Shown here: piece by piece, positions 1,377 to 56,990 of the stretch
Layout of the letters: every line of letters starts with the position of its first letter
Numbering within the stretch: position 1 is the first letter of the stretch
DNA from: an uncultured Deferribacteres bacterium
GTDB lineage: Bacteria; Zhuqueibacterota; Zhuqueibacteria; Zhuqueibacterales; Geothermadaptataceae
Direction: 5' to 3'
NCBI GenBank assembly: GCA_964014485.1
Contig: CAXHAT010000007.1
Span: forward strand, 11,928-75,927
Length of the DNA: 64,000 nucleotides
Notes under the pieces: generated by a model
What the model was told of the DNA's origin: nothing
The model's input: only the letters and a program-made list of their open reading frames with translations
The model's database searches: none
Made by a program: the position numbers and the translations under genes

Positions 1377-1465
1377 TTTTCCGCCTAATAATTGAGTTTT
1401 ACTTGGAGCCTGTTAGAAAATTGGGAGTCAGACGCTTCAGCATTTGATAGTAAACAGCTTTGTTG

Positions 1466-1585
1466 GCGGCTGTCCAAAAACATAATATTTTTATTGCGTT
1501 CCACAACATGTCGTAGGGGTTCAAGATTTTGAACCCCTACATATGGTATGTCTCTCATTCGGAAACCATGTTTTGGGATAGCCCC
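1466..1585. mobile_element. MITE-like element, shell E, carrying a GTAG-type REP hairpin
   Basis: Ends GCGGCTGTCCAAAAACAT and ATGTTTTGGGATAGCCCC are imperfect TIRs. Central hairpin GTAGGGGTTCAA-gatt-TTGAACCCCTAC at 1513-1540. A homologous copy lies at 27769-27886. Confidence 0.75.
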
Positions 1586-1624
1586 ACTCCAAAACATCTA
1601 TTCGCCAAGGTTTTCGGACAGCTC

Positions 1625-2932
1625 TTAATTGCTTGCAGGAATTCCGTTCCATTCCAGCGCGACAACCGTCAAGTCGTCGTGTTGCGGGGTCTTGCCGGCA
1701 AACGCTTCAATTTCAGAAATCGTTTTTTTGACTGCGTCTTCAGGCGATTTCCACCCTTTCTTGAGCTGGCGCAACAAGCGAGAAAGAGAATATCTTTCGC
1801 CAGCATCATTCTTGGCTTCAATCAGGCCGTCCGTGAAGCAGACGAGCTTGTCTTTGGGCTGCAATTGCAATCTGTGCGTTTGGAACTCCGCGTTTGCCAG
1901 AATGCCAAGCGGTACACCAACTTTTTTGTCGATAGCCCGGCTCTGAAACGTCTCGCCGTTGATGTGCAAAACGGGCACGTGCCCTGCATTCAAAATAGTA
2001 ACTTCGCCGGTATTCGCATCCAAAACCAGGTAGAGCAGCGTGACGAACATGCCGCGTCGACCGCGCTCAACGAGCAAATTGTTTACGGCAAAAAACGTAT
2101 TTTCCGGCGCTTCTTCAATTTGCGTGTGAAAACGGAAATCGCTGATCAAGCGCGCCATGTAAAGCGCCGCCGGAATGCCTTTGCCCGAGACGTCGCCAAT
2201 CACTATCCCGAGCTTATCCGCGCCAAATTCGATGAAATCATACAAGTCGCCGCCGACGGATGAGGCGGGCATACTGCGCGCTGAAATTTGAAAACGATTG
2301 TTCGGACAACTCGGTGCATTCTGCGGTATAAAACTTTCCTGAATGATACGCGCCGCTTCCAATTCCTGCCGAAACTTCTGCTGGTCGAGCAGCGACTGGT
2401 GGATGCGTGCATTGTCAATCGCGAGGGCGACCTGGCGGCAAAAAGTTGAGAACAATTCCAGATCGTACTCGTCGAAAGGCCTTCCATCAATACGATTGAT
2501 GACCTCCGCCACGCCGATAAGCTTATTTCTGACCTTGAGCGGAACCGCCAGAATTGAGCGGGTGACAAAGCCAGTGGCATTGTCCACTTTTTGGGCAAAT
2601 CTCTTGTCCGCGCTGACGTCTGGAACGTTGAGCGATTCACCCGTTTCCGCCACCCATCCTGCAATGCCCTCGCCCATTTTTAGCCGCAGCGTCTGCTTGG
2701 TGACGTCCCCGGCGTCGCCGAGGGCCACTTCACATTCGAGAAAGCCGGTGCGCTCATTGAACTGCAAAACGCTGCTTGCTTCGGCGTTCATGACCGCTTG
2801 CGCTTTTTCCATCACCAGATTGATGACTTGTTCGAGGTCAAGCGTCGAATTTACGAGCATGCTGACCTCGATGAGGCTGGATAGGCGTTTTACGCGGCGC
2901 TTAAGTTGGGCAACTTCCTGTTTTTCTGTCAT
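1625..2932 (-). CDS. GAF + SpoIIE/PP2C Ser phosphatase (RsbU-like)
   Basis: GAF region (GEGIAGWVA, RSILAVPL) followed by VGGDLYD, GDVSGKG, NAGH, FTDGLIEA and HDDLT motifs. Confidence 0.93.
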   Translation of the reverse strand: MTEKQEVAQLKRRVKRLSSLIEVSMLVNSTLDLEQVINLVMEKAQAVMNAEASSVLQFNERTGFLECEVALGDAGDVTKQTLRLKMGEGIAGWVAETGESLNVPDVSADKRFAQKVDNATGFVTRSILAVPLKVRNKLIGVAEVINRIDGRPFDEYDLELFSTFCRQVALAIDNARIHQSLLDQQKFRQELEAARIIQESFIPQNAPSCPNNRFQISARSMPASSVGGDLYDFIEFGADKLGIVIGDVSGKGIPAALYMARLISDFRFHTQIEEAPENTFFAVNNLLVERGRRGMFVTLLYLVLDANTGEVTILNAGHVPVLHINGETFQSRAIDKKVGVPLGILANAEFQTHRLQLQPKDKLVCFTDGLIEAKNDAGERYSLSRLLRQLKKGWKSPEDAVKKTISEIEAFAGKTPQHDDLTVVALEWNGIPASN

Positions 2933-2942
2933 TGCAAAAGTC

Positions 2943-3057
2943 GGAGTGGTGGAACAATGGATTCTTGGAATGCCGGATTAGCGGGTGATTTACTCTTTTA
3001 TGCCGCCGCTGTATTTCTCCATCAATCCATTATTCTAATCCTCGATCTCTCGAAATC
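2943..3057. repeat. Inverted pair of degenerate octamer tandem arrays
   Basis: GGAGTGGT GGAACAAT GGATTCTT GGAATGCC GGATTAGC, then TCCATCAA TCCATTAT TCTAATCC and further units, all with an 8-nt period. Confidence 0.65.
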
Positions 3058-3102
3058 ATCATCGTTACGCGGTAAAAACATCTAGAGCGGGACGTCGGGC
3101 GC

Positions 3103-5820
3103 CTAATGCGCTTCAAGCCAGTGATCGCCGACGCCAATGTCGACCTTTACCGGTACATTCAATTTTACTGCGTTTTCCATCTCTTCGGCTACGATGCGCT
3201 TGGCTTTTTCGAGCTCAGATTCAGGCGTTTCGAACACCAGTTCGTCATGGACTTGCAAAAGCATTTTTGTCTGCATTTTTTCTTTTTCCAAACGCTTTTG
3301 CACATTGATCATCGCGACCTTGATCATGTCTGCCGCAGTGCCTTGAATCGGCGAATTTGTGGCGATGCGTTCCGCAAATTCGCGGTTACGAAAGTTCTTG
3401 CTCGTCAAGTCAGGCAGGTAACGTTTTCTACCCATCAAGGTAGTCACATAACCGTCCGCTCGCGCATTCGCGATGGTGTCGATGATGAATTGATTGACGT
3501 TTGGAAAGCGCACAAAATACGCTGCGATAATGCTTTGGGCCTCGTCACGGGAAATGTTCAAACGCGAAGCAAGACCATAGGCGCTGATGCCGTAAATGAT
3601 GCCAAAATTGATTTCTTTGGCTTTGCGCCGGTGATCTGAGGTGAGCTCATTTTTCGGCACGCCAAAAACTTCGGACGCTGTGGCGCTGTGTATGTCGCGA
3701 CCTTCGTTGAACGCTGCGGCCATGCCGGGATCGTTGGAAAGATGCGCCATAACGCGCAGCTCGATTTGCGAATAATCCGCCGCCAGAAATTTCCAGCCCG
3801 GCTCGCCCGGGACGAATGCACGCCGAATCTGCCGCCCCATTTCGGTGCGAATCGGGATGTTTTGCAGATTTGGATCGCTGGAGGACAGGCGGCCAGTCGC
3901 GGCGATTGTTTGATTGTAGGAGGTGTGGATGCGTTTTGTGCGCGGGTTCACCATCTTCGGCAGGGAATCGACATAGGTGCTTTTCAATTTGGTGATTTCA
4001 CGATATTCGACCAATTTTTCCGGCAACGGATGCTTCTTGGCCAATTTTTCCAGCACGCTGGCGTCGGTGCTGTAGCCGGTTTTCGTTTTCTTGACCACCG
4101 GCAATTTTAAGTCTTCAAACAGAATCTTGCCAAGCTGCTTGGTGGAGTTGATGTTGAACTCGCCGCCCGCCAAGGCATAAATTTCTTTCTCCAAAATACC
4201 CAAGGACACAGCCATGTCGTGCGACATTTTTTCGAGGTAAGGCAAATCCAGCGCAATGCCGTTGTATTCCATCTGAACCAGCACGTCAACCAGCGGGATT
4301 TCAATCGTTTCGGCAAGTTTCGTGAGGCCGGCTGCTTTGATTTTCGGCTCAAAAACGCGTCGTAATCGCTCGGTCACGTCTGCGTCTTCACAAGCATATT
4401 CCGCGACCGTTTCTTCCGGCACTTCGCGCATCGTGATTTGTTTTTTGCCCTTGCCGATCAAGTCGGAAGTGGGGATTTTTGTAAGATTAAAATGCTCCAG
4501 TGCCAGCGCATCAAGATTGTATTTTTTACCGGCACCGGGATTTAGCAAGTAGGAAGCGAGCATTGTGTCGAACTTGAGGCCTTGCACGATGACGTCATAA
4601 TTCTTTAGCACAAGAATGTCATATTTTGCATTCTGGCCATTTTTCGAGATGCTCGCGTCTGTCAGCAATGGTCCGAGTCTGGCGATCAAATCGATCTCTT
4701 CCTCGCCGTCCAGAACCATGACTGAATATGGAGCAACGCCTTCCGGCGGCGTTTTTACCGGCACATAAAAAGCTTCGCCTTCCGCTACGGAAAATGAGAA
4801 ACCGACAATCTCGGCCATCATCGGATACTGCGAGGTCGTCTCCAAATCGAAAGTGAAATGCCCGGTTTCTTCTAACTTTTGTACCAGGTTATCGAGTTGC
4901 CGCCTCGTTTTGATTGTCTGGTAGTCGCGTTTTTCCTGAGGCTGCTCAACTTCGCCTTGAAAACGCGCAATGAGAGAATTGAACTCAAGATCACGCAATT
5001 GTTCGATCAGTTTTTCCGCGTCAGGCGATTTTCGCGATAATTGTTCCAAATCCAGCTCTACCGGCGCGTTCAATTCAAGCGTCACCAGGTCTTGCGATAA
5101 CTTGGCTTGATCGACGTTTTCCCGCAGGCTGGTTTGCACCGCCTTGCCTTTGACCTCGTCAACGTTTTCGAGAACGCCTTCAAGGCTGCCAAACTCTTCG
5201 AGCAGCTTAACCGCCGTTTTTGCCCCAACTCTTGGCACGCCCGGAACGTTGTCCGACGTATCGCCGACCAAAGCGAGATAATCGACGATTTGTTCAGGAG
5301 GCACGCCCATTTTTTGCTTCACGCCCTTCGGATCGAAAATTTCGACATCGGCGCCGGAACGCTTTAGGTTATAAAGCAGAATGTCTGGCGTGACCACCTG
5401 CATCATGTCTTTGTCCGCCGTCGCGATATAAGTTTTTATCCCCTGCTTTTCCGCCTTTATCGCCAACGTTGCAAGTACGTCGTCAGCTTCAAAACCGGGC
5501 GCTTCAATAAGCGGGATGTTCATAGCCTTGATGACGTTTTTTAGCTTGGGAATTTGATCCCGCATGTCCTCGGGCATTTTTTCACGCGTGGCTTTGTAGG
5601 CGGCGTAAGCTTTGTGGCGGAAGGTTGGCTCGCGCGTATCGAAAACGACGGCCATATAAGCCGGATCGTCTTCGTCTTCAATTTTGAAGACGGCGCGGAG
5701 AAAGCCAAAAACGGCGCTGGTGTTTTCCCCCCGAGAATTTATCAAAGGATTGCTGATAAACGCAAAAAAGGATCGGTACGCAAGCGCCGATCCATCGATC
5801 AAGAACAACTTTTTTTCCAT
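3103..5820 (-). CDS. polA: DNA polymerase I
   Basis: LFLIDGS 5'-3' exonuclease start (likely ATG at 5820), ExoI FDLETT, ExoIII YACEDAD, and polymerase motifs TGRLSSSDPNLQNIP, DYSQIELR and LQVHDEL. Confidence 0.98.
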   Translation of the reverse strand: MEKKLFLIDGSALAYRSFFAFISNPLINSRGENTSAVFGFLRAVFKIEDEDDPAYMAVVFDTREPTFRHKAYAAYKATREKMPEDMRDQIPKLKNVIKAMNIPLIEAPGFEADDVLATLAIKAEKQGIKTYIATADKDMMQVVTPDILLYNLKRSGADVEIFDPKGVKQKMGVPPEQIVDYLALVGDTSDNVPGVPRVGAKTAVKLLEEFGSLEGVLENVDEVKGKAVQTSLRENVDQAKLSQDLVTLELNAPVELDLEQLSRKSPDAEKLIEQLRDLEFNSLIARFQGEVEQPQEKRDYQTIKTRRQLDNLVQKLEETGHFTFDLETTSQYPMMAEIVGFSFSVAEGEAFYVPVKTPPEGVAPYSVMVLDGEEEIDLIARLGPLLTDASISKNGQNAKYDILVLKNYDVIVQGLKFDTMLASYLLNPGAGKKYNLDALALEHFNLTKIPTSDLIGKGKKQITMREVPEETVAEYACEDADVTERLRRVFEPKIKAAGLTKLAETIEIPLVDVLVQMEYNGIALDLPYLEKMSHDMAVSLGILEKEIYALAGGEFNINSTKQLGKILFEDLKLPVVKKTKTGYSTDASVLEKLAKKHPLPEKLVEYREITKLKSTYVDSLPKMVNPRTKRIHTSYNQTIAATGRLSSSDPNLQNIPIRTEMGRQIRRAFVPGEPGWKFLAADYSQIELRVMAHLSNDPGMAAAFNEGRDIHSATASEVFGVPKNELTSDHRRKAKEINFGIIYGISAYGLASRLNISRDEAQSIIAAYFVRFPNVNQFIIDTIANARADGYVTTLMGRKRYLPDLTSKNFRNREFAERIATNSPIQGTAADMIKVAMINVQKRLEKEKMQTKMLLQVHDELVFETPESELEKAKRIVAEEMENAVKLNVPVKVDIGVGDHWLEAH

Positions 5821-5943
5821 TTCCGCCTCTTTAATTCCTCTTGCGAAAAAAGTAACTGAAGGGGCGGTGAATGTCAACGGATTTTGTCGTTGGGCTTTTT
5901 GCTCCGGTCAGATTACCGGCAATCTAAAGATACGGCGAGTATT

Positions 5944-6468
5944 TTAGTCCGGCAGTTGCCCGCTTTCGATGAGACAATTGCCTTTACAAATCGGGCACTG
6001 TAAGCTGTCGGAGCATTCGAGGTGGTAGGCTTCAAAAGCTTGCAATAAAGAGTGCGCCTTGGGGTTGGCGGCATCAAAAAACTTGATGAATGAGAGCAGT
6101 TTTTCCCCGGTTTCGTAGCTGATCAAATGTTCGATTTTACAAGCGTCGATTTCCGCAGTTTCCGGATTAACGCCCAAAACGTCGCGGAAAAATGTGATGA
6201 GAATTTTGCGTTTGGATTGAATAACGCTGGCTAACGAATCGCCTTTGGGTGAAAGCTTCAGAAATTTGTTTTCATCTTCAACGACAAGACCGCGTTCTTT
6301 CAGTGCTTTCAGCGTAATTGAAGCGCTGCCCCGCGTTATGCTCAACCTCCGCGCAACATCGGTAACGCGAGCGTAGCCGTGCTTTCCCAAGAGGTGAGAA
6401 ATCGCCATTAGATGGTGCGCGGCGCTGTGCGTGATTTCATTGTGTTCAAATTCCTTCCAGACTTCCAT
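5944..6468 (-). CDS. DtxR/MntR-family metal-dependent transcriptional regulator with Cys-rich C-terminus
   Basis: wHTH ARVTDVARRLSITRGSASITLKAL, metal-site motif AEIDACKIEHLIS, and tail CSDSLQCPICKGNC. Confidence 0.88.
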   Translation of the reverse strand: MEVWKEFEHNEITHSAAHHLMAISHLLGKHGYARVTDVARRLSITRGSASITLKALKERGLVVEDENKFLKLSPKGDSLASVIQSKRKILITFFRDVLGVNPETAEIDACKIEHLISYETGEKLLSFIKFFDAANPKAHSLLQAFEAYHLECSDSLQCPICKGNCLIESGQLPD

Positions 6469-6526
6469 TTGACCCTATGTTCTATTAAAAAATTCTATGG
6501 AGAGATTAAAAAGCGCTGTCACTTTT

Positions 6527-6568: not shown

Positions 6569-6684
6569 GGGAAAGTTAGAACCCTCTGAACGCTCAAATC
6601 TGTTCAAAAAATGAATTGCCGAGAAGGCGGCGGAGTCTTATATTGGCGTTTTCAAATATTATCACAGAAATTACGGAGTTTGAC

Positions 6685-7317: not shown

Positions 7318-7331
7318 CTTTTTGAGAACCG

Positions 7332-12275: not shown

Positions 12276-12432
12276 TCAGGCTTAAGTATCAATTTTGGCT
12301 GTTTTTCAATCGCCGCAGAGGGGCCGGGTGAAAAGCGTCATGTATTGAACTGGAAAATTGACAGGCAGCGTGCAAACAGAAATTCACGAGTGGAACGATG
12401 TTGCCGGGCGATTGAAAGCTTTTTGACGGTTC

Positions 12433-12641
12433 ACTACCTGACACTTTTTGATGCTGTGAGTTCATGTCACCCCATTCGGGGTTTCAGGGAAGATTTTTGG
12501 CGCATTTTCTATAATCATTCCACCCCTGTCGGGGTTTTTGCCGCCTGAAAACCCCGACAGGGGTGAAATGATTATAGAAAAATCCGAACCAAATCATCTT
12601 TACCAAACTCCGAAGGAGTGATATAAAAAGTGTCAGGTAGT
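12433..12641. mobile_element. MITE-like element, shell A, carrying four ACCCC..GGGGT REP hairpins
   Basis: Perfect 17-bp TIR ACTACCTGACACTTTTT / AAAAAGTGTCAGGTAGT. Inner 34-bp inverted repeat (12505-12538 vs 12548-12581, 33/34 match). Outer REPs near 12464 and 12605. Confidence 0.8.
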
Positions 12642-12687
12642 AAATTCGGCGGTCAAAAAACTGAAGCATTCCAGAAAACACAAATAA

Positions 12688-13512
12688 TCAGGACGCTTTT
12701 CTCTGTTCGTTGCGATGGAGAAAGGGCGCTTTTTCCATATTTTGACTGATGTACGCATCGACGGCTTTTGAAGAAGGGGCGTCAGAATACGCCAGATCGG
12801 TCGGGATTTGCAGCGAAAAAACGTTGCCGCTTTCTTCCTGGACAATCCTTTGGCTCAAAAGAAAAAGAAGCCTCTCTTGAATCACATCATCGAATTCCGG
12901 CGAGAACGCAGCTTCAGAATGACGATTGATAAATTCTTCCGCTCGTTGAATCTCATATTTTTCCTTTTGAGTCGGTACGGCCGGCTTCTCAATTTTGGGC
13001 GCTTGAACTAGTTCGTGCGATGGCCTGAGAGTCGTCAAATACAATGCGTTTTCCTTGGCCCAGATTGCAGCAGTACATTGTTCTTTTTCCAGATGTATTT
13101 CCGCCAGGCCAAACGTTTTTGCGTTAAGAAGCGCCTCTCTTAAAATTTTGTACTCCTGAGCTGCGTTTTGCTCTGGAGAAAGAAGAAAAGAGTCGCGGAA
13201 ATAGTAGGGATCAACCGCCGTCTTCTTGACGAACTTGTCGATTGAAATCGTTTTCGCGCTTTTCGCCGCCGCCAACTCAAAATCTTCCTGTTCGACTTGC
13301 AAAAATCTGTCTTTGCCGATTTTTACTCCCAGCGCGATTTCTCTCTCCGGAACCGTTCCGTGCTCCGGGCATGATCTGCTCAGTGACGCAGGCGCGGAGC
13401 AAGACTTGTGGAGCGCATCAAACTGAATGCCGCTGGACTGATGTGCTGAAACGAGCTTGACCGGAATTTCAAATCGATCAAAACGCAAAACCCCGTCCCA
13501 GAAAGTGTCCAT
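12688..13512 (-). CDS. ku: Ku-like NHEJ DNA end-binding protein (divergent)
   Basis: WDGVLRF..FEIPVKLVSA, HKSC..CPEHG bridge, KTISIDKFV and VDPYYF; ATG at 13512 follows AAGGAGGG. Confidence 0.8.
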   Translation of the reverse strand: MDTFWDGVLRFDRFEIPVKLVSAHQSSGIQFDALHKSCSAPASLSRSCPEHGTVPEREIALGVKIGKDRFLQVEQEDFELAAAKSAKTISIDKFVKKTAVDPYYFRDSFLLSPEQNAAQEYKILREALLNAKTFGLAEIHLEKEQCTAAIWAKENALYLTTLRPSHELVQAPKIEKPAVPTQKEKYEIQRAEEFINRHSEAAFSPEFDDVIQERLLFLLSQRIVQEESGNVFSLQIPTDLAYSDAPSSKAVDAYISQNMEKAPFLHRNEQRKAS

Positions 13513-13758
13513 ATTACCCTCCTTGAATAATGGCATTAGCTCAATTAAAGAGAAGTGGAAAAATTGTCAAGCGCGAATAGCCGTAAACGCTTGCATTTAG
13601 CGCAAGGCGGCTTCATATAAGCAAAGGTGTTTTTTCAGAGCGGAGACGACGAAGCATGTGGCGAATTTGGTGGACAAAAGGTCAAAAATTATACCGATGT
13701 TCACCGTTTGTTGCAAGCATTTTTTTCTGTAATGCGAAATATTTTCAGAGGTGACGGT

Positions 13759-14609: not shown

Positions 14610-15061
14610 CTGATGTTACGCGCGCCTCGTTTGGCGTGCGTGATCAAAGCCCGTAGGCAACTATTGATTCTCATTAGCTCCGTTCTTCAGAGCGGAGATA
14701 TTTGAGGACGGCTGTCCCTTGTCCCTCTCTTCCGCCGCGTCAGCGCGGCGGAAGAGAAGGAAGTGGGCGTTCTGCGCTTCACCGGGCTGAAGCCTAATGT
14801 CACTAACTTTTTGTGATTTTGAACTTAAACAAGTCTTGATAATGGTCACCACAGGGCAAGCTGAAGCTTGAACTACAAACGACAGTGCTTCTCTTACGCT
14901 CAGAGTAGAAGGATGTACGGTGGTTTGTAGTTCAAACTTTAGTTTGTTTGAGCGTAACCAAAGCAAAAAGTTAGTGACATTGGGCTGAAGCCCGGCGCTA
15001 ATGAGACAAGATTTGCCCCGAGACTTAGGATATGCGTTGCCGCGCGTAACATCAGTATCAG
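14610..15061. mobile_element. MITE-like element, shell B, with CTCATTAGC-type REP doublet and a nested insertion
   Basis: Perfect 15-bp TIR CTGATGTTACGCGCG / CGCGCGTAACATCAG plus a 6-bp terminal duplication. 7-bp flanking direct repeat TTAGTTA at 14603-14609 and 15062-15068. Homologous to 48911-49194. Confidence 0.82.
14795..14982. mobile_element. Nested MITE, shell C, carrying a GTAGTTCAA REP doublet
   Basis: TIR TAATGTCACTAACTTTTTG / CAAAAAGTTAGTGACATTG (18/19 match). 10-bp TSD GGCTGAAGCC at 14785-14794 and 14983-14992. Confidence 0.87.
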
Positions 15062-27768: not shown

Positions 27769-27886
27769 GGGACTGTCTCAAAACATGATATTTTTAGAGC
27801 GCGACACAACATGTCGTAGGGGTTCAAAATCTTGAACCCCAACATTTGGTATGCCTTTAGGCAGAGACCAGGTTTTAGACAGCCCC
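27769..27886. mobile_element. MITE-like element, shell E, second copy
   Basis: GGGACTGTCTCAAAACAT ... GTTTTAGACAGCCCC ends; shares CACAACATGTCGTAGGGGTTCAA..TTGAACCCC with 1466-1585. Confidence 0.75.
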
Positions 27887-27896
27887 CGCAAGCTCC

Positions 27897-27923
27897 GAAT
27901 CAAACGCTCAGGCGTTTGACTCC
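27897..27923 (-). repeat. GGAG-tagged REP hairpin
   Basis: Minus strand reads GGAGTCAAACGCCTGAGCGTTTGATTC; a related sequence lies at 1424-1447 on the plus strand. Confidence 0.55.
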
Positions 27924-29091: not shown

Positions 29092-29301
29092 ATGCTCATC
29101 AATCTATTTTTTAAAAACTAACATTTCTCACTTCGTTTTAGATGCTATAAACTTCTATTTGTAATAACTTTAGACTCAGGCGTTCAGTGATAATCTTCGA
29201 ACAATGCTTGAGCGTGACCCTGGTTTCTGTTTTTCATTCTTTGCCTGAAAAACTATGAATTAGCCTCAATTTGAAGTGAGAAATGTTAGTTAAAAAGATG
29301 T

Positions 29302-29490
29302 TCTTTCTCAACCTTTTGCCAGGACGACGCAAGACAAACAAACTGAAGTTTGAACTACAAACGACAGTGCATCCTTCGACTCCAAATGTAAAGCAAGCAC
29401 TGTGGTTTGTAGTTCAAGCTTTAGCTTGCTTTTGCTGGAGCCGCCGTCTATACCTTTTGAAATCAAAACCACGAAAAGTTTATGACTTTG
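29302..29490. mobile_element. Degenerate inverted copy of the shell C element
   Basis: REP doublet at 29339-29362 and 29405-29428. The right end AAATCAAAACCACGAAAAGTTTATGACTTTG resembles the reverse complement of the 14795 end. The left end is eroded. Confidence 0.65.
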
Positions 29491-42344: not shown

Positions 42345-42535
42345 TACTATAACGTTAAGTTAGCCTCAAAAACTGGCTGATTTCCATTCAGGAGCGCTTC
42401 AAAAGCAGCCTGAAGGCTGAACTACAAACGACTGTGCTTCCCTTACGCTTCAGAATTGGCAGAACGCATTGTCGTTTGTAGTTCAAGCTTAGCTTGTTTT
42501 GCTAAACGTTTCGAGGCGGACTTAACGTTGTAGTA
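42345..42535. mobile_element. MITE-like element, shell D, carrying the same GTAGTTCA REP doublet as shell C
   Basis: 27-bp TIR TACTATAACGTTAAGTTAGCCTCAAAA (23/27 match). REP arms at 42406-42429 and 42474-42496. The spacer is homologous to 14881-14922. Confidence 0.8.
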
Positions 42536-44318: not shown

Positions 44319-44333
44319 GTGTATTTTTCACTT

Positions 44334-44518
44334 GCTGCCTGACGCTTTTTTGCGAACTCGTGCTAAGTCCCATTGTGTCATTCTGAAAGAATCTTTGTTA
44401 TCGCCCAGTACGGATTGTGCTCAAAGTTCAAGGGTGAGACTAAAAAGGATGCTTGCTGCATGACAATTCCGGCCTTTTTCGCCAGCTTTAGAAGCCTATA
44501 CAAAAAATGTCAGGTAGT
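44334..44518. mobile_element. MITE-like element, shell A, with TGTCAT-type REP doublet
   Basis: Ends GCTGCCTGACGCTTTTT / AAAAAATGTCAGGTAGT; cargo TGTCATTCTGAAAGAATCT..GATGCTTGCTGCATGACA; homologous to 45410-45608. Confidence 0.75.
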
Positions 44519-44549
44519 GAAATTTTTTATGAGGTGGAGGTTTAATTAC

Positions 44550-45281: not shown

Positions 45282-45409
45282 GCCGTTATTTTTGTTTAAG
45301 CTTTACCTAACAACCGTCCAGTTTGTCATGCTGAAAGCATTTTTTTTGCTATCAACGTACGACCTTCGCTCATTACTTGTAATTGCAAAAGATTCTTGGG
45401 GAATGATTC

Positions 45410-45608
45410 TCTATCTGACGCCTTTTTGTAAACTGCATTTTCGAGTCGTCGAAAAGCCCCGTTTTGTCATTCTGAAAGAATCTTTGTTATCGCCCAGTAC
45501 AGAGCATGCTCAAAAGTTCATGGGTCAGGTCAAAAAAGATGCTTCCAGCATGACAATACCGGCCTTTTTCACCAATTTTAGAAGCCTAAACAAAAAGTGT
45601 CGGGTAGT
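45410..45608. mobile_element. MITE-like element, shell A, with TGTCAT-type REP doublet; a degenerate inverted doublet lies just upstream (about 45326-45406)
   Basis: Ends TCTATCTGACGCCTTTT / AAAAAGTGTCGGGTAGT; shares TGTCATTCTGAAAGAATCTTTGTTATCGCCCAGTAC with the 44.3-kb copy. Confidence 0.75.
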
Positions 45609-45725
45609 GAAGGGGAATGACAAACCGACGCCGAACATTTGTGACTTAAAAGCAAGGGAGAGACGAACTTTTCGTTTCTCCCTTTTTCGTACCGGATTGT
45701 TTAAAATATTTTGAGGAGTGGAGAA

Positions 45726-48824: not shown

Positions 48825-48835
48825 TGATCGGATGA

Positions 48836-48861
48836 TAGAGACGCGATGCATCGCGTCTCTA
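48836..48861. repeat. GTAG-type REP palindrome
   Basis: Perfect 26-bp palindrome TAGAGACGCGATGCATCGCGTCTCTA, 11 bp after the stop codon. Confidence 0.75.
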
Positions 48862-48910
48862 CATTTTTCAATTTCCCAACCTTTTGAAGAACAAGTCTGT
48901 AGCAGTTCAA

Positions 48911-49194
48911 TTACTTTTATGCACGCATCGTTTGACACGCGCGATCAGAGTCCGAGGGCAACTTTTGATTCTCATTAGCTGCGCGCTTCAGCGCGTAGGA
49001 ATGAGTGCAAATTCATCCCCCCATTTCCTCCCGCCGAGTTAACTCGGCGGGAGGAAAAGAAGAGCGCCCGACCAAGTCCACGCGCTGAAGCGCGCGGCTA
49101 ATGAGACGCCCGGACAGTCAGCGCTGAAGCGCGGCGTTAATGAGACGGCTTTTGTCTCGGGACTCAGGATGTGCGTTGCCGTGCGTAACATCCG
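48911..49194. mobile_element. MITE-like element, shell B, copy without the nested insertion
   Basis: Colinear with 14610-15061. Right TIR GTGCGTAACATCCG is followed by TTACTTA; left end TTACTT has a short deletion in the TIR. Perfect 34-bp central palindrome at 49024-49057. Confidence 0.78.
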
Positions 49195-49734: not shown

Positions 49735-49766
49735 TCGTAGAGGTTCAAAGCCTTGAATCTCTACGA
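49735..49766. repeat. Free-standing GTAG-type REP hairpin related to the shell E cargo
   Basis: TCGTAGAGGTTCAA-agcc-TTGAATCTCTACGA. Confidence 0.7.
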
Positions 49767-49923: not shown

Positions 49924-50184
49924 TTGGCAGGCACGATTCTAAATACGCGCGTTGATCCAGAAGTGCTAAGCGACGCGGAGAGGATTCTGAAAACTCTTGG
50001 AATTAGCCGATCCGTTGCGATCAACATGTTTTATCGAATGGTCATTCTTAAAAAAGGCTTGCCCTGGAAGCCAAATCTCGACGAGACGGAATATGTCATG
50101 AGCAATCCAAACCTTGTTGAGCAAATCGAACAAAGCATGGATGAGTTTAAAAACGGAGATTTTTTCCTGCGCCGAAGGGGGTGA
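49924..50184 (+). CDS. RelB/DinJ-type antitoxin with YefM-like C-terminus
   Basis: TTG start after AAGGAG; LNTRVDPEV..AERILKTLGISRSVAINMF..GLPW (RHH), then ETEYVMSNPNLVEQI. Confidence 0.8.
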   Translation: MAGTILNTRVDPEVLSDAERILKTLGISRSVAINMFYRMVILKKGLPWKPNLDETEYVMSNPNLVEQIEQSMDEFKNGDFFLRRRG

Positions 50185-50187
50185 CCG

Positions 50188-50505
50188 ATGAGATTGATCG
50201 CCTTTAGCAGCCGCTCATTCGAAGAGTATGAGAAACTCCGCCAAAAGAACAAGGCTTTGCATAAAAAGCTTTTGAAAATCCTGGTCGAAATGCAGCGCGG
50301 AAATCCGTGGGAAGGGGTTGGCAAGCCCGACCCTTTGAAAGGGAATTATTCCGGACTGTGGTCGCGCCGCTTATCCGAAAAAGATCGCGTGATTTATCGA
50401 TTTGATGATAAAATGATTTACGTTTTTGCTATCGGCGGGCATATGGCGACCGATAAGCCAAAAAATTTTATAAGACGGTCTGGTTCTTTAAAAACTTCAT
50501 TGTGA
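50188..50505 (+). CDS. yoeB: Txe/YoeB-family toxin, probably C-terminally frameshifted
   Basis: GVGKPDPLKGNYSGLWSRRLSEKDRVIY; the expected terminal HY is replaced by HMATDK... and the ORF runs into the convergent gene. Confidence 0.85.
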   Translation: MRLIAFSSRSFEEYEKLRQKNKALHKKLLKILVEMQRGNPWEGVGKPDPLKGNYSGLWSRRLSEKDRVIYRFDDKMIYVFAIGGHMATDKPKNFIRRSGSLKTSL

Positions 50506-52228: not shown

Positions 52229-54054
52229 TGACTGACGCGCGCTTTTGATAGATCGAATCGCCCGAATCCAAGCAGGCGCAAATCTCTGAGCTTCCTGGGG
52301 AAAACGGCGTAGTTTGTCACTTTGACGAGCGGGTAAATTTGAAGATCGTCAAAAACGCTTTTTTCAAATTCTCTCACCAAAGTTGACGGTTGGCCGTCGT
52401 TAAAATTGTTGAAAAGCGGCTGTTTTTCAGGAGGCAAGATAGCATTCGCGAAGGACGCGGCATTGTGCAATGCGTGATGAAACTCCGGGGAAAAGGCGTC
52501 GATCAAAAGGTCAAAAGCCCGGCTCTTAATTCGTTCTTGAAACACAATTTGGGAGAGTGCGACAGGCGAAAAATGTGGAATTTGGAGTTGCGTTAAACGC
52601 GCGTCCAGACGTTCGGCGATTTGGCGGGCCGTCGGGTCGTTTTTGCGGTAAATCAATTCCAGCGGTCGCTTGCCGCGCCAATTAAGCGGCGCCTGTCGAT
52701 GAATCTCCGTAAAATGATATTCTCCGAAAAAGGTCGAAGCCGCTGCTGCGTTTGCAACGGTTAAAATGTTCGCCAGGTTGGCGCGCTCGACCGCAGCCAA
52801 AACCGCCTGACGAAAAACAGCTTCTCTGAGGGAGCTGCGCCGGGCGTTCATACGTAAAAAATAAGTCGACGCTTCGGGGAAGGCCGCCACTTGCAAGTTT
52901 TCGACACGCTTATAAAATGCGACGTCTTTGGATGAACTTACCAGGGAAAACGCATTTTCCGAAGCAAGCACTGCGTCCAGCAATTTCGGCTCTTCCGTCC
53001 TTTTTAAGGAAAAGCCGGCCAGATTGATCCTTTCGCCGGTGTAGTGAGCGTTGGCTTGAAGCGTCGTCTCGTCTACCTGGCGGAATGTATCGTTTTCTTT
53101 GAGATAAAACGGGCCCGTCCCGAGATCGGGAGAATCGGCTCTGGAAAATTTGCGCACGGCAAAACCAGGGTGAGACAAAAGGGCGAGCAGCCGCGAAACT
53201 GGTTTGACGAATTCAATTTCCAGGATCAGATTGTCGACGATTCGTAAGCCGGAGATTTTAAGAGAATCACCGCGGACAAAAGCGTCGCCGCCCGCAATTT
53301 TTTGCAAAACCCAGCGGATCGATTGCGCCGAAGCGTCAGGTTTGCGCCAATTGCTTTCCCAGCCTTTTTTTAGCGTTTTTGCATCGAGTGTTGTTCCGTC
53401 GGAGAATCGGCGAGCGTCTTTTAGCCGAATTTTCCAGCGACGACCTGCTTGCTGCATTTCTATATTTTCAGCAAGAACGTACGTCAATTCTCCCGTTTTG
53501 CTCATTTTGACCAATGGCTCATAAACAAGCCCTGAAAAGCTTTCCAAGATGAGTTGATCGATGTTCGTCTTGTTGGAAAAAATGAATTGCAATCGAGCGT
53601 TGCCGGAAGCGTTTTGGAATGCGTCAAGCGCTGCGGCTTGAGAAGCGACGTCTTCCGTAATCAACGCGTCGCTTTCGGTCAGAGGAAGTGAGGGAGCGTC
53701 ACGTGGAGTTCTTTCAAAAAAGGGAAAAACAAACAACGCACCGCTTTTTTGGACGACGAACGGTGAGTCTCGTGAATCCGGCGATTCAGCCATGTATGTT
53801 TTTAGGGCGATTTCGTAGGATTCTCTGCGAATTTCGAATGCATCTGGCTGACTGGTTTTGTCGGTCTTGAGCAGCGCTATAGCCGCATCGACAAGTTGGC
53901 GCTCCGCAAGAGAAAGCTGATGATAGGGCGTGACGTTTTCGACGCCTGCTTTTTTTGCCAGATTTCCGCCGGCGCAGGAAATGAGAAAAGCGCTGCACGC
54001 TAGCGCAGATAGCAGCACAAAAAAAAGAGGTGAGCAACGATCTTGATTTTCCAT
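52225..54054 (-). CDS. Family-5 solute-binding-protein-like lipoprotein
   Basis: Likely start MENQ.. at 54054 with lipobox LISC; LVYEPLV, RFSDGTTLDA, GTGPF and FRQAVLAAVER. Confidence 0.75.
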   Translation of the reverse strand: MENQDRCSPLFFVLLSALACSAFLISCAGGNLAKKAGVENVTPYHQLSLAERQLVDAAIALLKTDKTSQPDAFEIRRESYEIALKTYMAESPDSRDSPFVVQKSGALFVFPFFERTPRDAPSLPLTESDALITEDVASQAAALDAFQNASGNARLQFIFSNKTNIDQLILESFSGLVYEPLVKMSKTGELTYVLAENIEMQQAGRRWKIRLKDARRFSDGTTLDAKTLKKGWESNWRKPDASAQSIRWVLQKIAGGDAFVRGDSLKISGLRIVDNLILEIEFVKPVSRLLALLSHPGFAVRKFSRADSPDLGTGPFYLKENDTFRQVDETTLQANAHYTGERINLAGFSLKRTEEPKLLDAVLASENAFSLVSSSKDVAFYKRVENLQVAAFPEASTYFLRMNARRSSLREAVFRQAVLAAVERANLANILTVANAAAASTFFGEYHFTEIHRQAPLNWRGKRPLELIYRKNDPTARQIAERLDARLTQLQIPHFSPVALSQIVFQERIKSRAFDLLIDAFSPEFHHALHNAASFANAILPPEKQPLFNNFNDGQPSTLVREFEKSVFDDLQIYPLVKVTNYAVFPRKLRDLRLLGFGRFDLSKARVSQ

Positions 54055-54084
54055 TTGCAAACAGGCGATTTTGGGCAGGTCATC

Positions 54085-54191
54085 GGAGTGCAAGGCTTGC
54101 CTTGCGAAGCCTGGAGGCTTTTCAATCTCATCCAATACTTTCAGACGTTTTTCAGCAAGCAGGATGAAAAGCAAAGCAAGCTTTGCACTCC
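54085..54191. repeat. GGAG-type REP doublet
   Basis: GGAGTGCAAGGCTTGCCTTGC ... GCAAAGCAAGCTTTGCACTCC; both arms are identical to those at 56818-56935. Confidence 0.8.
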
Positions 54192-54437
54192 ATTTTCGAT
54201 TCACAACCTGGATCAAATATAGAAAAGTCTCTGAAACAAAGCCAAGAACAATGGTTTGCACTGTCGAGAACCCGCACCGTTTTTGCATTGGCGCGGTCGC
54301 CTGCAACTTTCAGGAAGTCGGATTGTCCACAATAATTGTCGTGTTTTGGTCTGTAACAAATTTCTCCGGCGCGGCGTAGCTTTTGGGGCGCTGGGGAAAG
54401 AGGAAGTGACATAAATTTTGCGGACAGGTGGCAGGTT

Positions 54438-55535
54438 ATGAAAAAAGCGATTCTTTGGATTGTTATTCTCGTCGTAGTCGGCGGCGGCGGGTTTATGGCG
54501 TTTTCGGTTTTGAGCGAAGACGATAGTGAAAACGGCCCTAAAACGGTGGCTGTGGAACGTCGTACAATTGTTGACAAGGCGCTTGCCGTCGGGACGATTG
54601 ACCCGGAAACGGAAATCGACGTGAAGTCGAAAGTCTCGGGCGTCGTCAAGCGGCTTTTTGTTGATGCTGGAGATTTTGTGAAAGCCGGCGCTCCAATTCT
54701 GGAAGTCAAGCCGGATCCCACCCCTCTCGAACTTGCCGAAGCCACGCGCGAAGTTGAAATGAAAGGCATCGGGCTAACTACTGCTCAAAAAGAAAAAGAT
54801 CGCGTGAAAGCGCTGGTTGAACGCAACCTCGTTTCTGAAAAGGAATTTGACGATGCGACGCAAGTTTTTGAAGAAGCAAATTTGCGCTACAGCATCGCCA
54901 AAGAGCGGCTCGCGTTGATTGAAAAGGGCAAAGTGCAAATCGCCAACACGCAAATCGAATCGGTGATCAAAGCGCCGATCAGCGGTTTTGTTTTGGAAAA
55001 AATGATCGAGGTCGGCGACCCTGTCGTGCCTTCAAGCACGTACCAGGCCGGCGATGTGCTCATGACCATGGCGAACATGGAGAATCTGATTTTTAAAGGC
55101 ACGGTCGACGAAATTGACGTGGGCAAGTTGACTGAAGGCATGGAAGCGGTGATCGACGTGGGCGCTATTCCCGGCGAAGACGGCGTTCAGGGCAGATTGC
55201 GAAAGATTTCACTGAAGGCGGTGAAGGAAAACAACACCACGGTTTTCCCCGTCGAGGTTGATTTAACCTACACGAACGGTTCGGTTTTGCGCGCTGGCTA
55301 TTCGGCCAACGCCAACATTATTATTGCCAAAAAAGAAGACGTATTTTCCATCCCGGAACGTGTCGTTACGTTTCGCAACGATTCCGCTTTTGTGAAAATC
55401 CCGACGGACGAGCTTGGCGGTGAGAAAGAAATTTACATCGAAACCGGCCTTTCCGACGCGATTTATATCGAGGTCGTCTCCGGGCTTAAAGAAGACCAGA
55501 GAGTGCTTGAAAAACCTGTGAAAAAGATCGAGTAG
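54438..55535 (+). CDS. MacA-like membrane fusion (efflux adaptor) protein
   Basis: N-terminal TM, VKSKVSGVVKRLFVDAGDFVKAG, IKAPISG, VDEIDVGKL and TGLSD. Confidence 0.9.
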   Translation: MKKAILWIVILVVVGGGGFMAFSVLSEDDSENGPKTVAVERRTIVDKALAVGTIDPETEIDVKSKVSGVVKRLFVDAGDFVKAGAPILEVKPDPTPLELAEATREVEMKGIGLTTAQKEKDRVKALVERNLVSEKEFDDATQVFEEANLRYSIAKERLALIEKGKVQIANTQIESVIKAPISGFVLEKMIEVGDPVVPSSTYQAGDVLMTMANMENLIFKGTVDEIDVGKLTEGMEAVIDVGAIPGEDGVQGRLRKISLKAVKENNTTVFPVEVDLTYTNGSVLRAGYSANANIIIAKKEDVFSIPERVVTFRNDSAFVKIPTDELGGEKEIYIETGLSDAIYIEVVSGLKEDQRVLEKPVKKIE

Positions 55536-55541
55536 ACCGCC

Positions 55542-56786
55542 ATGAGTTTTTTTTCAAATTTTGCCATGCTGCTGCGTGATCTTTGGTCGCAAAAGTTACG
55601 CACTTTTTTGACGCTTTTTGGCATCATGTGGGGGACGATGTCGGTGATTTTATTGCTCGCTTTCGGCTCGGGCGTGCATAAGCAAAACCGCAAAAATCAG
55701 GCGGGCATCGGCGAAGGCGTGGTGATCGTTTGGGGCGGTACGACGGGCTTGCCCTACAAAGGCTTCAATAAAGGACGCCCGATTCGGCTCGTCGAGGAAG
55801 ACGTCGATTTGTTGCGCCGGGAGATTCCGGAAATCAAGTATATCAGCCCGGAATATTCAACCTCGCGGCCAAAAGTACGCGGCCCGCTGAACGTTGAACA
55901 AACGAACATCACCGGGATTATCCCGGAATACGAAGATATTCGTAACGTCTTTCCATCTGCCGGGGGGCGTTTTATTAATGATCTTGACCTGCAATTTAAC
56001 CGTCGCGTTGCATTCATCGGCGACCGCTTGCGCGATTTCTTATTTGGCAAAGGCAAGGATGTAATTGGCGAGAACCTTCTCATCAATGATACGCCTTTTA
56101 CTATTGTCGGCGTCCTGCAGAAGAAAAAACAAAATTCCAGTTACAATACCCGCGACAACAACCGCGTTTTTATTCCCGCTACCACTTTTCAATCCATATT
56201 CGGCGCGCGCAATCTTTCCAATATTGTCTACAAACCCTATTCGCCTGAATTGCACAGCGCTTACATTCGCAATCGCATGTATGAAGTGATGGGCAAAAAA
56301 TACACCTTTGACCCGAACGACGAAGACGCATTGTGGATTTGGGACACGGCGGAGTTCGCTGAAATTTTTGAAGCTTTTATGAACGGCTTCAAGATTTTCC
56401 TGGGTATGATCGGCGCTTTTACGCTCACGGTCGGCGGCGTTGGCGTGGCGAATATTATGTATGTGGTGGTCAAGGAACGCACGCGCGAAATCGGCGTGAA
56501 ACGTGCGGTTGGCGCGAAGAAAAAGCACATTCTTGCTCAATTCTTGTTTGAGTCAAGCACGATTGTTGGCGTGGGGGCGGTGATTGGCTTTTTGCTGGCG
56601 TGGGGAGTCATTTCGCTGATGCAGATGCTGCCGGACGAAGCGACGGAAGAAATCGGCAAGCCCATTTTGTCGGGAGAAGTCGCGGTTGCGAGCGTTTTGC
56701 TGCTCGGCCTTGTCGCGACGATGGCCGGTTATTTTCCCGCACGCCGCGCCGCGACAATCGATCCTGTGGAAGCCTTACGAAGTTAA
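55542..56786 (+). CDS. MacB/FtsX-like ABC permease
   Basis: KLRTFLTLFGIMWG, VGGVGVANIM..VKERTREIGVKRAVGA and PARRAATIDPVEALR. Confidence 0.92.
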   Translation: MSFFSNFAMLLRDLWSQKLRTFLTLFGIMWGTMSVILLLAFGSGVHKQNRKNQAGIGEGVVIVWGGTTGLPYKGFNKGRPIRLVEEDVDLLRREIPEIKYISPEYSTSRPKVRGPLNVEQTNITGIIPEYEDIRNVFPSAGGRFINDLDLQFNRRVAFIGDRLRDFLFGKGKDVIGENLLINDTPFTIVGVLQKKKQNSSYNTRDNNRVFIPATTFQSIFGARNLSNIVYKPYSPELHSAYIRNRMYEVMGKKYTFDPNDEDALWIWDTAEFAEIFEAFMNGFKIFLGMIGAFTLTVGGVGVANIMYVVVKERTREIGVKRAVGAKKKHILAQFLFESSTIVGVGAVIGFLLAWGVISLMQMLPDEATEEIGKPILSGEVAVASVLLLGLVATMAGYFPARRAATIDPVEALRS

Positions 56787-56789
56787 GAA

Positions 56790-56962
56790 CTGACGTTACG
56801 CAGCCAATTTAGAATATGGAGTGCAAGGCTTGCCTTGCAATTCCGCTGCGTTTTTGCCTGAACTTTTTCGTTAAAATTCTGAATGCGCCGTTTCTTGTTG
56901 GCCAAAGCTGAAAAGCAAAGCAAGCTTTGCACTCCTTACGTTTGCGGCACGCGTAATATCGG
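56790..56962. mobile_element. MITE-like element, shell B, carrying a different (GGAGTGCA) REP doublet
   Basis: Ends CTGACGTTACGC / GCGTAATATCGG, flanked by the 7-bp direct repeat TTAAGAA at 56783-56789 and 56963-56969. Confidence 0.75.
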
Positions 56963-56990
56963 TTAAGAATTTGCTTTGAACATTTTGGCG

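Follow-up and report, generated by a model that had tools for sequence, protein, structure and literature searches.

Insertion-sequence ends enclosing REP hairpin doublets in an uncultured Deferribacteres bacterium and in other genomes

How REP hairpins multiply and how bacterial MITEs originate are two open questions, and reviews handle the two repeats as separate classes, at least in the accessible portions of their text (PMC3733652, PMC3184786). The stretch of DNA analyzed here (the window; 64,000 nt of contig CAXHAT010000007.1) bears on both. A first-pass annotation had described intergenic elements in which terminal inverted repeats (TIRs; shells) enclose REP palindromes (cargos), with shell and cargo decoupled. 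How did hairpin repeats come to lie between such ends, and what spreads them? The observation itself is confirmed and is far above chance.

Shells and cargos in the window

All of the shell and REP elements listed by the annotation are present in the window; coordinates are given without strand. Shell A, with IS4-like ends, holds two cargos, namely a TCACYCC four-hairpin cluster (TCACCCC type) at 12430-12644 (lineage A1) and a GTCA-tagged (Ssn-type) GTCAT-type doublet at 44331-44521 and again at 45407-45611 (lineage A0). A whole N-type MITE, now decayed, sits inside the interior of the 44331-44521 copy. Shell B, with IS701-type ends, likewise holds two cargos: the CTCATTAG doublet at 14610-15055 (lineage B1), with a variant CTCATTAG cluster in a B1-type element of decayed left end at 48911-49194, and the GGAGTGCA doublet at 56790-56962 (lineage B3). 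One GTAGTTCA doublet with its homologous spacer occurs in shell C, with IS4 ends (14795-14982; doublet at about 14856-14946), in a decayed C-type shell whose ends resemble C loosely, as judged by reading the sequence (29302-29490; doublet at 29336-29431), and in shell D, with IS701 ends and the 4-bp duplication CAAT (42345-42535; lineage D0). These three doublets can be aligned with those beside RAYT genes at other loci of the genome (mean column identity 77%). REPs also occur without a shell, as had been reported for a GTAG(A/G)GG palindrome at 49737-49764 and for a GGAGTGCA doublet at 54085-54191, whose spacer differs from that of B3.

Two elements required reinterpretation. There is indeed a C shell at 14795, which had been taken as a separate neighbor of the B element, but it is an insertion, flanked by a target duplication, within a CTCATTAG REP loop and splits the B element, which folds into one long rod (z -13). 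A full IS4 element with C ends (C25:31408-32929) occupies the same site in a CTCATTAG REP loop. At 1406, the outer inverted pair (1406-1627) is single-copy, and the multi-copy unit is the shell E element within it (1466-1585, about 120 bp), which carries a single GTAGGGG palindrome (1513-1540). The annotation also missed a second shell E element (27769-27886; GTAGGGG palindrome at 27816-27843), a shell-free GTAGAGAC palindrome (48835-48862) and MITE K (29117-29290), a REP-free counter-example of 174 bp with three genome copies that are 99-100% identical. In agreement with the annotation, no transposase was found among the 45 window ORFs scanned; an Rfam search gave no match.

Genome-wide census of short elements

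The A 16-mer (one mismatch) gave 128 + 125 matches in the genome and the B 12-mer 173 + 178 exact matches, compared to 0 for the reversed controls. Pairing of ends yielded 538 short TIR-bounded elements, mostly of 110-300 bp, in 11 end families, excluding the F motif, whose matches at two mismatches were mostly chance. A REP motif was present in 494 of the 538, compared to 2,084 of 17,281 control non-coding windows (12%), with the motifs picked after the elements had been seen. Nine of the 11 end families are loaded with REPs and seven of these nine carry two or more cargo families; the many combinations in this tabulation bear out the decoupling of shell and cargo, and other genomes show the same pattern. 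Shell E forms 60 pairs, 56 with a REP motif, while REP-free pairs account for 10/11 in H and 9/9 in K.

Copies are concentrated in few lineages (A0, 109/120 strict A pairs; B0-B3, 113/161 B pairs), with A1 present in 5-6 copies. The elements are almost wholly intergenic, as only 2/128 A and 13/217 B lie mostly inside an ORF. Some REP families have most of their copies in shells: 174 CTCATTAG matches were in intact shells, 62 beside a single end, 23 in free non-coding DNA and 27 in ORFs. Shells therefore represent a second, testable vehicle for REP spread.

Ends, target duplications and parent insertion sequences

Target duplications flank 34/128 A (8 bp, exact), 88/217 B (7 bp) and 12/17 D elements (4 bp). 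Duplication lengths by family are 8(-9) bp for A, 7 for B, about 10 for C, 4 for D, 4 for H, 6 for I, 3 for J, 7 for K and 6 for L; shell E showed no consistent duplication (at most 7/60). Full insertion sequences (ISs) with A ends (L031 and L035) matched the IS4 model NF033591 at 121-145 bits, under its cut-off of 152, and in this genome the A-type parent is a fragment. Full ISs with B ends (L437, L322 and three more) belong to IS701 (NF049921); a search of this genome with L437 as the query found no B-type transposase. Those with D ends (L547-L549; NF033540, IS701) are in relatives, and among A-D only the parent of C is intact here (L010; NF033592, IS4). H ends match an autonomous IS1182-type IS. 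One A element lies within its own parent IS (G152). ORFs next to unpaired ends were too noisy as a guide to parent ISs. As to empty sites, the 40 relatives included no genome of the same genus, and among the matches listed from three contig sets of one study no joint skipped an element.

The annotation's view of these elements as non-autonomous chimeras stands: the TIRs recur genome-wide, DDE ISs have the same ends, shells hold several cargos and the cargos are nuclease-linked REP doublets.

Cargos and nuclease loci

The cargos are tagged imperfect hairpins arranged as inverted doublets with a conserved spacer, and they occur free in the genome too. Y1 (RAYT) genes are flanked by GTAGTTCA doublets at C64 and C76, by GGAGTGCA, the REP of the B3 element at 56790, at C241 and by CTCGTT at C27 and C1; these RAYTs score above or at the NF047646 cut-off. 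TCACYCC hairpins flank IS200-like Y1 genes at C5 and C361. The proposed RAYT link thus holds for several cargos but is too narrow, as the genes flanked by the two commonest cargos are small GIY-YIG genes. GTCA-tagged and CTCATTAG cargos flank no Y1 locus among those examined, and no nuclease gene was found for the CTCATTAG cargo. GTCA/CGTC-tagged doublets flank 4/5 short single-domain GIY-YIG genes examined in this genome, and across five relatives the motif lies within 400 bp of 5/11 short compared to 0/9 long GIY-YIG genes. NCBIfam gave a weak GIY-YIG intron-endonuclease match in 2/4. These associations suggest that the GTCA-tagged doublets, the commonest cargos, are linked to Ssn-like GIY-YIG nucleases. 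The link between GIY-YIG genes and CGTC repeats is already published as Ssn, which cleaves single-stranded DNA at a position a few bases 5' of the CGTC hairpin (PMC11893778).

Some cargos include DNA beyond the hairpins. The A1 interior (175 nt) aligns over positions 1-175 at 70% to the DNA immediately 5' of the C5 Y1 gene, up to the start codon. A REP tag lies 7 nt or less from one TIR in 17/49 scored A lineages, with TIR-to-tag distances in A spread over 0-46 nt rather than at a single cut position.

Origin of the flanks between ends and cargo

IS body inside the TIR was found at 0/108 A ends, whereas both ends of the single plain deletion derivative, L236, do match. IS-internal sequence was likewise found at 0/62 D ends, compared to six IS ends. 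In an IS-interior homology test within this genome, C and A failed and the REP-free H passed; derivation of C flanks from that IS family's own interior found no support in 12 comparisons (best p 0.04). Retention of the TIR alone is not a law, given that 5/80 B ends keep IS-internal sequence. Fast divergence of parent IS ends and unsampled true parents could hide short IS-derived flanks. In A, flanks are common within a cargo family in 84/121 cases and between families in 2/121 (null 0-4), which rules out an A body that stays fixed while cargos are swapped. Because only the TIR is IS-derived in A and D, and because A flanks travel with the cargo, each shell-cargo pairing is a separate birth followed by DDE amplification.

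The annotation's second suggestion, that shells act as hotspots where REPINs insert, finds no support in the comparison of ends and flanks, and neither does the exchange of cargos within a fixed shell body. In the fuller form of this reading, REPINs enter an IS or small MITE through their own nuclease, deletions erode the IS body and cargos turn over in a lasting shell lineage. Two REP-bearing B elements (L418 and L387), which are among those retaining IS-internal DNA and do so on one side, fit this sequence of events, as does B2, a composite of a B0-like left part, an F-type end, a CTCGTT cluster and a B1-like right flank. The common right flank of B1 and B2 shows that cargo is sometimes turned over, and A0 could be an N element that landed in an A stub of 65 bp. 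Two comparable cases were interpreted by Di Nocera 2013 as insertions of REP dimers into palindromes (PMC3733652). IS DNA is nevertheless absent from the A and D ends, A flanks are not common across cargos and A1 contains donor flank beyond its hairpins. Moreover, shells with the same flanks but no cargo were not found, nor, as far as the accessible text goes, were they by Di Nocera for those cases. We regard REPIN insertion as an unlikely general origin.

Insertion into REP loops and nesting

The reverse relation, overlooked by the annotation, is also present. The flank consensus of C, G, H and I elements is the REP itself, and C, G, H, I and F ends are located in REP loops with duplications. 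Insertion of ISs into REP loops is thus a layering process, and shells other than A and B that insert there give Russian-doll nesting. REP targeting is a known habit of ISs (Tobes and Pareja 2006, PMC1525189). A and B behave differently: 12/126 A and 27/212 B elements lie near free REPs, compared to 497/3000 controls, which rules out landing by free REPs followed by their capture.

It could be argued that ends and REPs have no special relation, with chance nestings in REP-rich spacers being amplified and REP targeting explaining the rest. The few lineages that yield most copies, the 12% background of REP motifs in non-coding windows and the targeting by C, G, H and I would all be expected. However, targeting puts an IS inside a REP rather than a REP inside IS ends, A and B do not land beside free REPs and the loading extends to 9/11 end families, seven of them with two or more cargo families. 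Together with the dozens of lineages in other phyla described below, this largely refutes chance nesting, which we consider very improbable.

Elements with the same ends in other genomes

Short A-, B- and D-ended elements were sampled by their ends alone from other genomes and from metagenomes; most of them carry hairpin repeats, which belong to many unrelated families. DNA-folding z of at least 3 was reached by 33/46 A lineages (8/42 flank controls) and 29/40 B lineages (5/38 flank controls), the lineages in these samples not being independent of one another, and by 27/31 D elements, a set without controls. The signal was weaker by motif-free inverted-repeat z of at least 4 (16/46 A and 15/40 B lineages), and IS ends themselves can fold (z 5.1 and 6.1 in 2/6). 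In all, dozens of separate lineages with unrelated cargos were found across phyla in three end families. D ends in viral contigs gave 54 single matches and 0 pairs and were taken as chance. For these three cargo-blind end families, most short derivatives are IS ends around the host's own REP doublets, whatever the family.

Element length and possible selection after birth

When periods of 7-16 bp were scanned, A lengths fitted 10.4 bp best (R 0.44, p 0.0002, lineages not independent); the signal fell to p 0.16 on distinct lengths and was absent in the GCCAC cargo group. B lengths gave no phase signal. Helical phasing, if real, argues for an interior that acts as a stiff duplex rather than a hinge, and the idea that REPs are favored as cargo because they form a cruciform hinge is disfavored only insofar as the A signal holds. 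Length periodicity of mini-transposons has precedent; a literature search on it found no paper.

Alternatively, capture may be blind. Random host DNA would be taken, and units with REPs would prevail as they are tolerated or useful in spacers, for example as terminators or mRNA-stabilizing hairpins, bend or bind architectural proteins, which would help short ends meet, or have the right length. Plain deletion derivative L236 is single-copy in a genome (G158) with 34 A ends, REP-less stubs of 57 and 64 bp each occur once in this genome and the elements are almost only intergenic; the length floor and the phasing indicate strong filtering after birth. Arguing against selection as the source of the REPs, REP-free H and K still reached 9-11 copies, REPs are, by eye, as frequent in low-copy as in high-copy lineages and the phasing, if real, implies a stiff rather than a hinged interior. 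Blind capture with selection is the least unlikely of the alternatives, although still doubtful.

Proposed birth route

The reading that we favor, at a probability of roughly 0.55, is that MITEs were repeatedly born by REP-doublet DNA replacing the interior of an IS and were then amplified by the DDE transposase. The interior of a DDE IS would be replaced near the inner TIR edge by a 60-250 bp host piece, which would be a REP doublet with its own flanks and at times the 5' region of a nuclease locus or a whole older MITE. We infer that the new unit is multiplied in trans by the cognate transposase, of IS4 or IS701 type, in ordinary transposition events that leave a target duplication. Survival would require sufficient length (about 110 bp or more in A), with helical phasing probable in family A. 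Capture itself would most likely be illegitimate joining where an IS has been excised or broken, by aberrant gap repair or by end-joining. The hairpin fragments that are joined may come from single-stranded DNA cut by RAYT, Ssn-type and similar hairpin-directed nucleases. A second process, which the data do show, adds layers: C, G, H, I and F ISs target REP loops, and subsequent deletions join an inner cargo to the outer ends.

A broader version is tentative. Hairpin nucleases of unrelated folds (Y1 RAYT, GIY-YIG Ssn, DUF559 and GxxExxY) might release REP doublets that are joined between transposase-bound IS ends, as a regular but unnamed route of MITE birth; in KSB1 and Chloroflexota, REP capture might then be the default MITE origin and DDE transposition a main engine of REP spread.

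From the hundreds of gene-less elements in this bacterium and their relatives in other phyla, it appears that hairpin repeats regularly spread by a second route, through cut-and-paste transposases. The broader version, if true, would answer part of the old question of REP multiplication. REP counts and RAYT-based population models are open to confounding by DDE hitch-hiking. Matched parts are at hand for assays, including a transposase, 20-bp ends, cargos and a length series. The findings point to no host function and belong to selfish-DNA biology.

Comparison with known systems

Pack-MULE- and Ds1-type capture in plants is a comparable system. Deletion-derived bacterial MITEs such as Correia, RUP, ERIC and Nezha (listed in PMC3733652) share TIRs, target duplication, lack of a gene and a trans-acting parent IS with the elements described here, whose interior is foreign rather than an IS remnant, with plain deletion forms (L236 and H) in the minority. 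REP-targeting ISs (PMC1525189; Delihas 2011, PMC3184786) resemble the C, G, H, I and F ends in REP loops, but they are cases of an IS in a REP, whereas the main finding here is REPs within IS ends, with shells A and B showing no REP targeting.

Tagged hairpin doublets flanking Y1 HUH genes are characteristic of REP/REPIN-RAYT systems (PMC2817692, PMC3337134, PMC6006769). Here, DDE ends also carry the doublets as passengers and are flanked by target duplications; duplications of this kind are absent from Y1 products. The doublets flanking GIY-YIG genes similarly parallel Ssn nucleases and their NTS/SRM (CGTC) repeats, while Ssn-type repeats are here the main MITE cargo; the word MITE has 0 occurrences in the accessible text of that account (PMC11893778).

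The annotation knew of no description of a general system, and we found no general account of REP-loaded MITEs in the literature, although single cases are in print (QMITE2; Di Nocera 2013). In Anabaena variabilis and Halothiobacillus neapolitanus, GTAG and CGTC dimers are regularly enclosed by a long inverted pair of which no empty form was found; in the accessible text, these palindromes are noted in passing, not as IS ends and with no tests of duplication or transposase, and most REPs are unlinked to other repeats (PMC3733652). The closest precedent, QMITE2 of Coxiella burnetii, is a 150-190 bp MITE with TIRs, 7-11 nt direct repeats and a GTAG REP inside; the REP occurs without TIRs too, and another IS, IS1111, inserts into it (PMC5896051). 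QMITE2 is one family in one species, with no cognate IS named in the accessible text, and free REPs were taken as truncated MITEs (PMC5896051), whereas the evidence here favors the cargo as the older part, across many end families and many cargos with identified parent ISs and nuclease loci.

Shells and cargos across the host genome

The host genome comprises 8.4 Mb in 465 contigs, and the gene content of the window is ordinary. All elements named in the first-pass annotation were present on re-inspection of the sequence, and no transposase was found among the 45 ORFs scanned there, as it had stated. Two placements changed: the C element at 14795 lies nested in a REP loop that belongs to the B element starting at 14610, and the outer pair at 1406 has one copy in the genome, whereas shell E, which lies inside it, is repeated. 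The terminal inverted repeats (TIRs) of A and B recur genome-wide far above chance, with 128 + 125 matches to the A 16-mer at one mismatch, 173 + 178 exact matches to the B 12-mer and 0 for either reversed pattern.

Using 11 end motifs, gathered by inspection and by scanning de novo for inverted pairs, 538 paired elements of <800 bp were counted (relaxed pairing, a few false pairs included); if nested elements are counted twice, these make up ~1.4% of the genome. Any of 11 REP motifs, selected after elements had been seen, occurred in 494/538 elements versus 2084/17281 non-coding control windows; that chance produced the pattern appears very improbable. Nine end families were loaded with REPs (A, 125/128; B, 207/217; C, 8/8; D, 17/18; E, 56/60; G, 9/11; I, 14/17; J, 32/34; L, 25/25), and H (1/11) and K (0/9) were not. 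The proposed decoupling of shell and cargo was borne out, as seven of the nine loaded shells carry at least two cargo families each, and six of the cargo families are shared by at least two shells. A few lineages supply most copies (A0, 109/120; B0–B3, 113/161), at 87–98% identity to the nearest sampled sibling. Exact target duplications were found for A (8 bp, 34/128), B (7 bp, 88/217), C (10 bp, 2/8), D (4 bp, 12/17), H (4 bp, 8/11), I (6 bp, 10/17), J (3 bp, 21/34), K (7 bp, 7/9) and L (6 bp, 14/24), with no consistent duplication for E (at most 7/60). Left out of the 538 is one more shell family, the twelfth, named N (120–159 bp with ends GAGACTGTCGAAAAA; contig C2:71657 and six more), which holds the same GTCA doublet as A0.

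Other repeats in the window include the REP-free MITE K (29117–29290), with three copies (C7, C197 and C423) at 99–100% identity, the youngest-looking MITE family, for whose interior no homolog was found outside the family. A further GGAG-tagged REP family (GGAGTCA...TTTGA; ~30 genome matches, outside the motif table) adjoins both E elements at 1425–1448 and 27890–27920. Short tandem CACTCCAT repeats lie at 57030–57070, downstream of the 56790 element, and a related tandem family is frequent across the genome. The free REP at 49737 is followed closely, at 49925–50505, by a probable short antitoxin ORF and, after it, a YoeB-like toxin ORF (50188–50505).

Insertion sequences behind the shells

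The shells had been called IS-like, and full-length insertion sequences with the same TIRs were recovered for A, B, C and D. The C parent is a full IS4 element (409 aa) at contig C25 of the host genome, within the REP loop of a B element. Full A elements of 1.06–1.25 kb with IS4-like transposases (scores below the NF033591 cut-off) occur in genomes G002, G011, G125 and G161, and the host genome has one A-ended IS fragment, at a contig end. Five full B elements (1.1–1.2 kb; IS701 family in the two tested) were recovered, with none found in the host genome by a search with the L437 transposase, together with three full D-ended IS701 elements of 1.5–1.6 kb in relatives. The H ends are those of IS1182. 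In genome G152, an A-ended MITE is located within its own parent IS. The host genome also contains three ISNCY elements (468 aa, ends TAGTGTCCATCCG; C50, C190 and C458) and a four-layer nest at C388:410–3782, in which a B end and a GTCA REP are followed by an F-ended 3-kb element, encoding a 441-aa IS4 transposase plus passenger DNA, and lastly by a unit that has G ends and GTCCC repeats.

The junction of shell and cargo

In a comparison with 34 ends of IS or IS-like elements, L236, a plain deletion derivative, matched at both of its ends, and 0/108 other A ends did so; against six IS ends, 0/62 D ends carried IS sequence beyond the TIR. In the host genome, C and A interiors fail to match IS, and REP-free H matches its own IS1182 (p 0.004). 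IS-derived sequence thus seems to stop at the TIR in A and D, with the caveat that the true parents may be unsampled. The counter-case is B, where 5/80 ends retain IS DNA, including the REP-bearing L418 and L387; these two would suit insertion of a REPIN followed by erosion, a route that the clean A and D ends make rather improbable.

Among A flanks, 84/121 match another flank of the same cargo and 2/121 a flank of a different cargo (null 0–4). The flanks belong to the cargo, and the reading of cargo swapped inside a fixed A body is contradicted. Donors are recognizable by sequence comparison. Over its full length (1–175 of 175, 70%), the A1 interior aligns with DNA upstream of the contig C5 Y1 gene, halting at its start codon, and A0 encloses an entire, decayed MITE from a different family that still has seven intact pairs. 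A Ku (end-joining) gene adjoins the A1 element in the window (12688–13536), and the host owns at least part of an end-joining pathway, which could bear on capture.

The REP tag lies ≤7 nt from one TIR in 17/49 scored A lineages and up to 46 nt away elsewhere. A element lengths begin near 110 bp, with a best period of 10.4 bp (scan 7–16 bp; R 0.44, p 0.0002, 49 lineages) that weakens to p 0.16 on distinct lengths. Its phase is common to three A cargo groups, and the period is absent in the GCCAC cargo group and in B. Helical phasing of short transposons is general background; no paper on their length periodicity was found in a search of full-text papers. A and B show no preference for insertion next to free REPs. 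The reverse relation, insertion into REP loops, is seen for C, G, H and I, and chimeras such as B2, joined from parts of several elements, result from such insertion followed by deletion.

Elements in other genomes and metagenomes

Sampled by its ends, A was matched in 28/166 phylum genomes, where single matches can be chance. Loci among the matches listed and 60 stretches around listed places yielded 58 short elements from 13 genomes, of which 52 hold a REP motif, five more cluster with those and one does not; 46/58 have a target duplication within one mismatch. A GTDB scan, whose set overlaps these 58, gave at least 120 A loci (at least 42 distinct short pairs, at least one full IS and at least 73 unpaired, many at contig ends), titled mostly Anaerolineae or other Chloroflexota, KSB1, Calditrichia and Magnetococcales among those listed. 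By eye, 40/42 listed pairs enclose repeats that are themselves paired and fall into about ten families, the exceptions being L236, the plain deletion derivative, and L229, an ambiguous case.

In a motif-free test of DNA folding (z ≥ 3), 33/46 A lineages passed versus 8/42 flank controls, and 29/40 B lineages (metagenome scan, among the matches listed) versus 5/38; 2/6 IS ends themselves also fold well. A cruder inverted-repeat test was passed by only 16/46 A and 15/40 B lineages (controls, 3/37 and 8/69). D ends are present in 20/166 genomes, and 27/31 short D elements passed folding, a set without flank controls and with pairs partly picked from the listing; 21/31 have a 4-bp duplication. None of 40 relatives is of the same genus, and no current movement was seen in three contig sets, among the matches listed.

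Cargos and their nuclease genes

The first-pass annotation tied REPs to RAYT transposases, which holds for part of the cargo. RAYT genes are flanked by GTAGTTCA doublets (contigs C64 and C76), GGAGTGCA doublets (C241) and CTCGTT doublets (C27 and C1), and IS200-like Y1 genes (C5 and C361) by TCACYCC clusters. Among the Y1 loci examined, the link fails for the doublets tagged GTCA, which form the main load of shells A, B and J and part of that of E and which flank 4/5 short GIY-YIG genes examined in the host genome. Among the nuclease loci examined there, no gene was found for the CTCATTAG cargo. Two further repeat kinds flank the sole DUF559 gene (C180:14103–14417, with CCCACCCC...CCCTCC doublets on both sides) and one of two GxxExxY genes (C359:3245–3541, within an inverted repeat pair). 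By analogy, these look like two more nuclease–repeat pairings resembling RAYT and Ssn, and repeats that by eye resemble theirs serve as A cargo in other genomes.

The doublet upstream of the C64 RAYT gene (C64:28972–29125; L004:1174–1326) has a decayed D end before it and aligns with lineage D0 from its first base (75% over 155 nt). This locus may be either the birthplace of D0 or one whose upstream doublet comes from an old D0 copy. In an A-ended lineage of G114 (L151–L153), the final five codons by the TIR read MSGTY, resembling the start of Y1 genes of the same class (MAGTF and MANTY in the host genome); the 5′ end of a Y1 locus may have been captured here.

Origin of the elements and comparison with known systems

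At least four DDE end families have given rise, on many occasions, to these MITEs with REP doublets and the doublets' own flanks inside. We place slightly better than even odds (about 0.55) on a model of repeated birth in which the DDE transposase of the parent IS would mobilize the short units in trans, and capture would proceed by illegitimate joining at excised or broken IS, using hairpin fragments supplied by hairpin-directed nucleases. Blind capture of DNA followed by selection is an unlikely alternative, somewhat ahead of REPIN insertion. The observations give no indication of a host function.

The first-pass annotation knew of no description of the elements as a general system. In open full text we found no paper presenting the capture of REPs between IS ends as a general phenomenon, and supplements (Di Nocera's additional files in particular) and subscription papers could hold cases; single precedents are, however, in print. 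As described in the available text, Coxiella QMITE2 is a single MITE containing a GTAG REP (PMC5896051), compared with at least four DDE end families around REP doublets here. Di Nocera 2013 reported REP dimers within long palindromes in two species, not called IS ends in the parts available (PMC3733652), whereas the enclosing repeats here were matched to full IS. The insertion of C, G, H and I into REP loops corresponds to the REP-targeting IS already known from the accessible portions of PMC1525189 and PMC3184786, and the RAYT background is covered, in the sections available, by PMC2817692, PMC3337134 and PMC6006769. The GTCA doublet with a short GIY-YIG gene matches the published Ssn–SRM pairing, in which, according to the available text, the site where Ssn cleaves single-stranded DNA is located a few bases upstream from the hairpin (PMC11893778). 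The cross-phylum pattern is real, assembled from known parts and with published single precedents.
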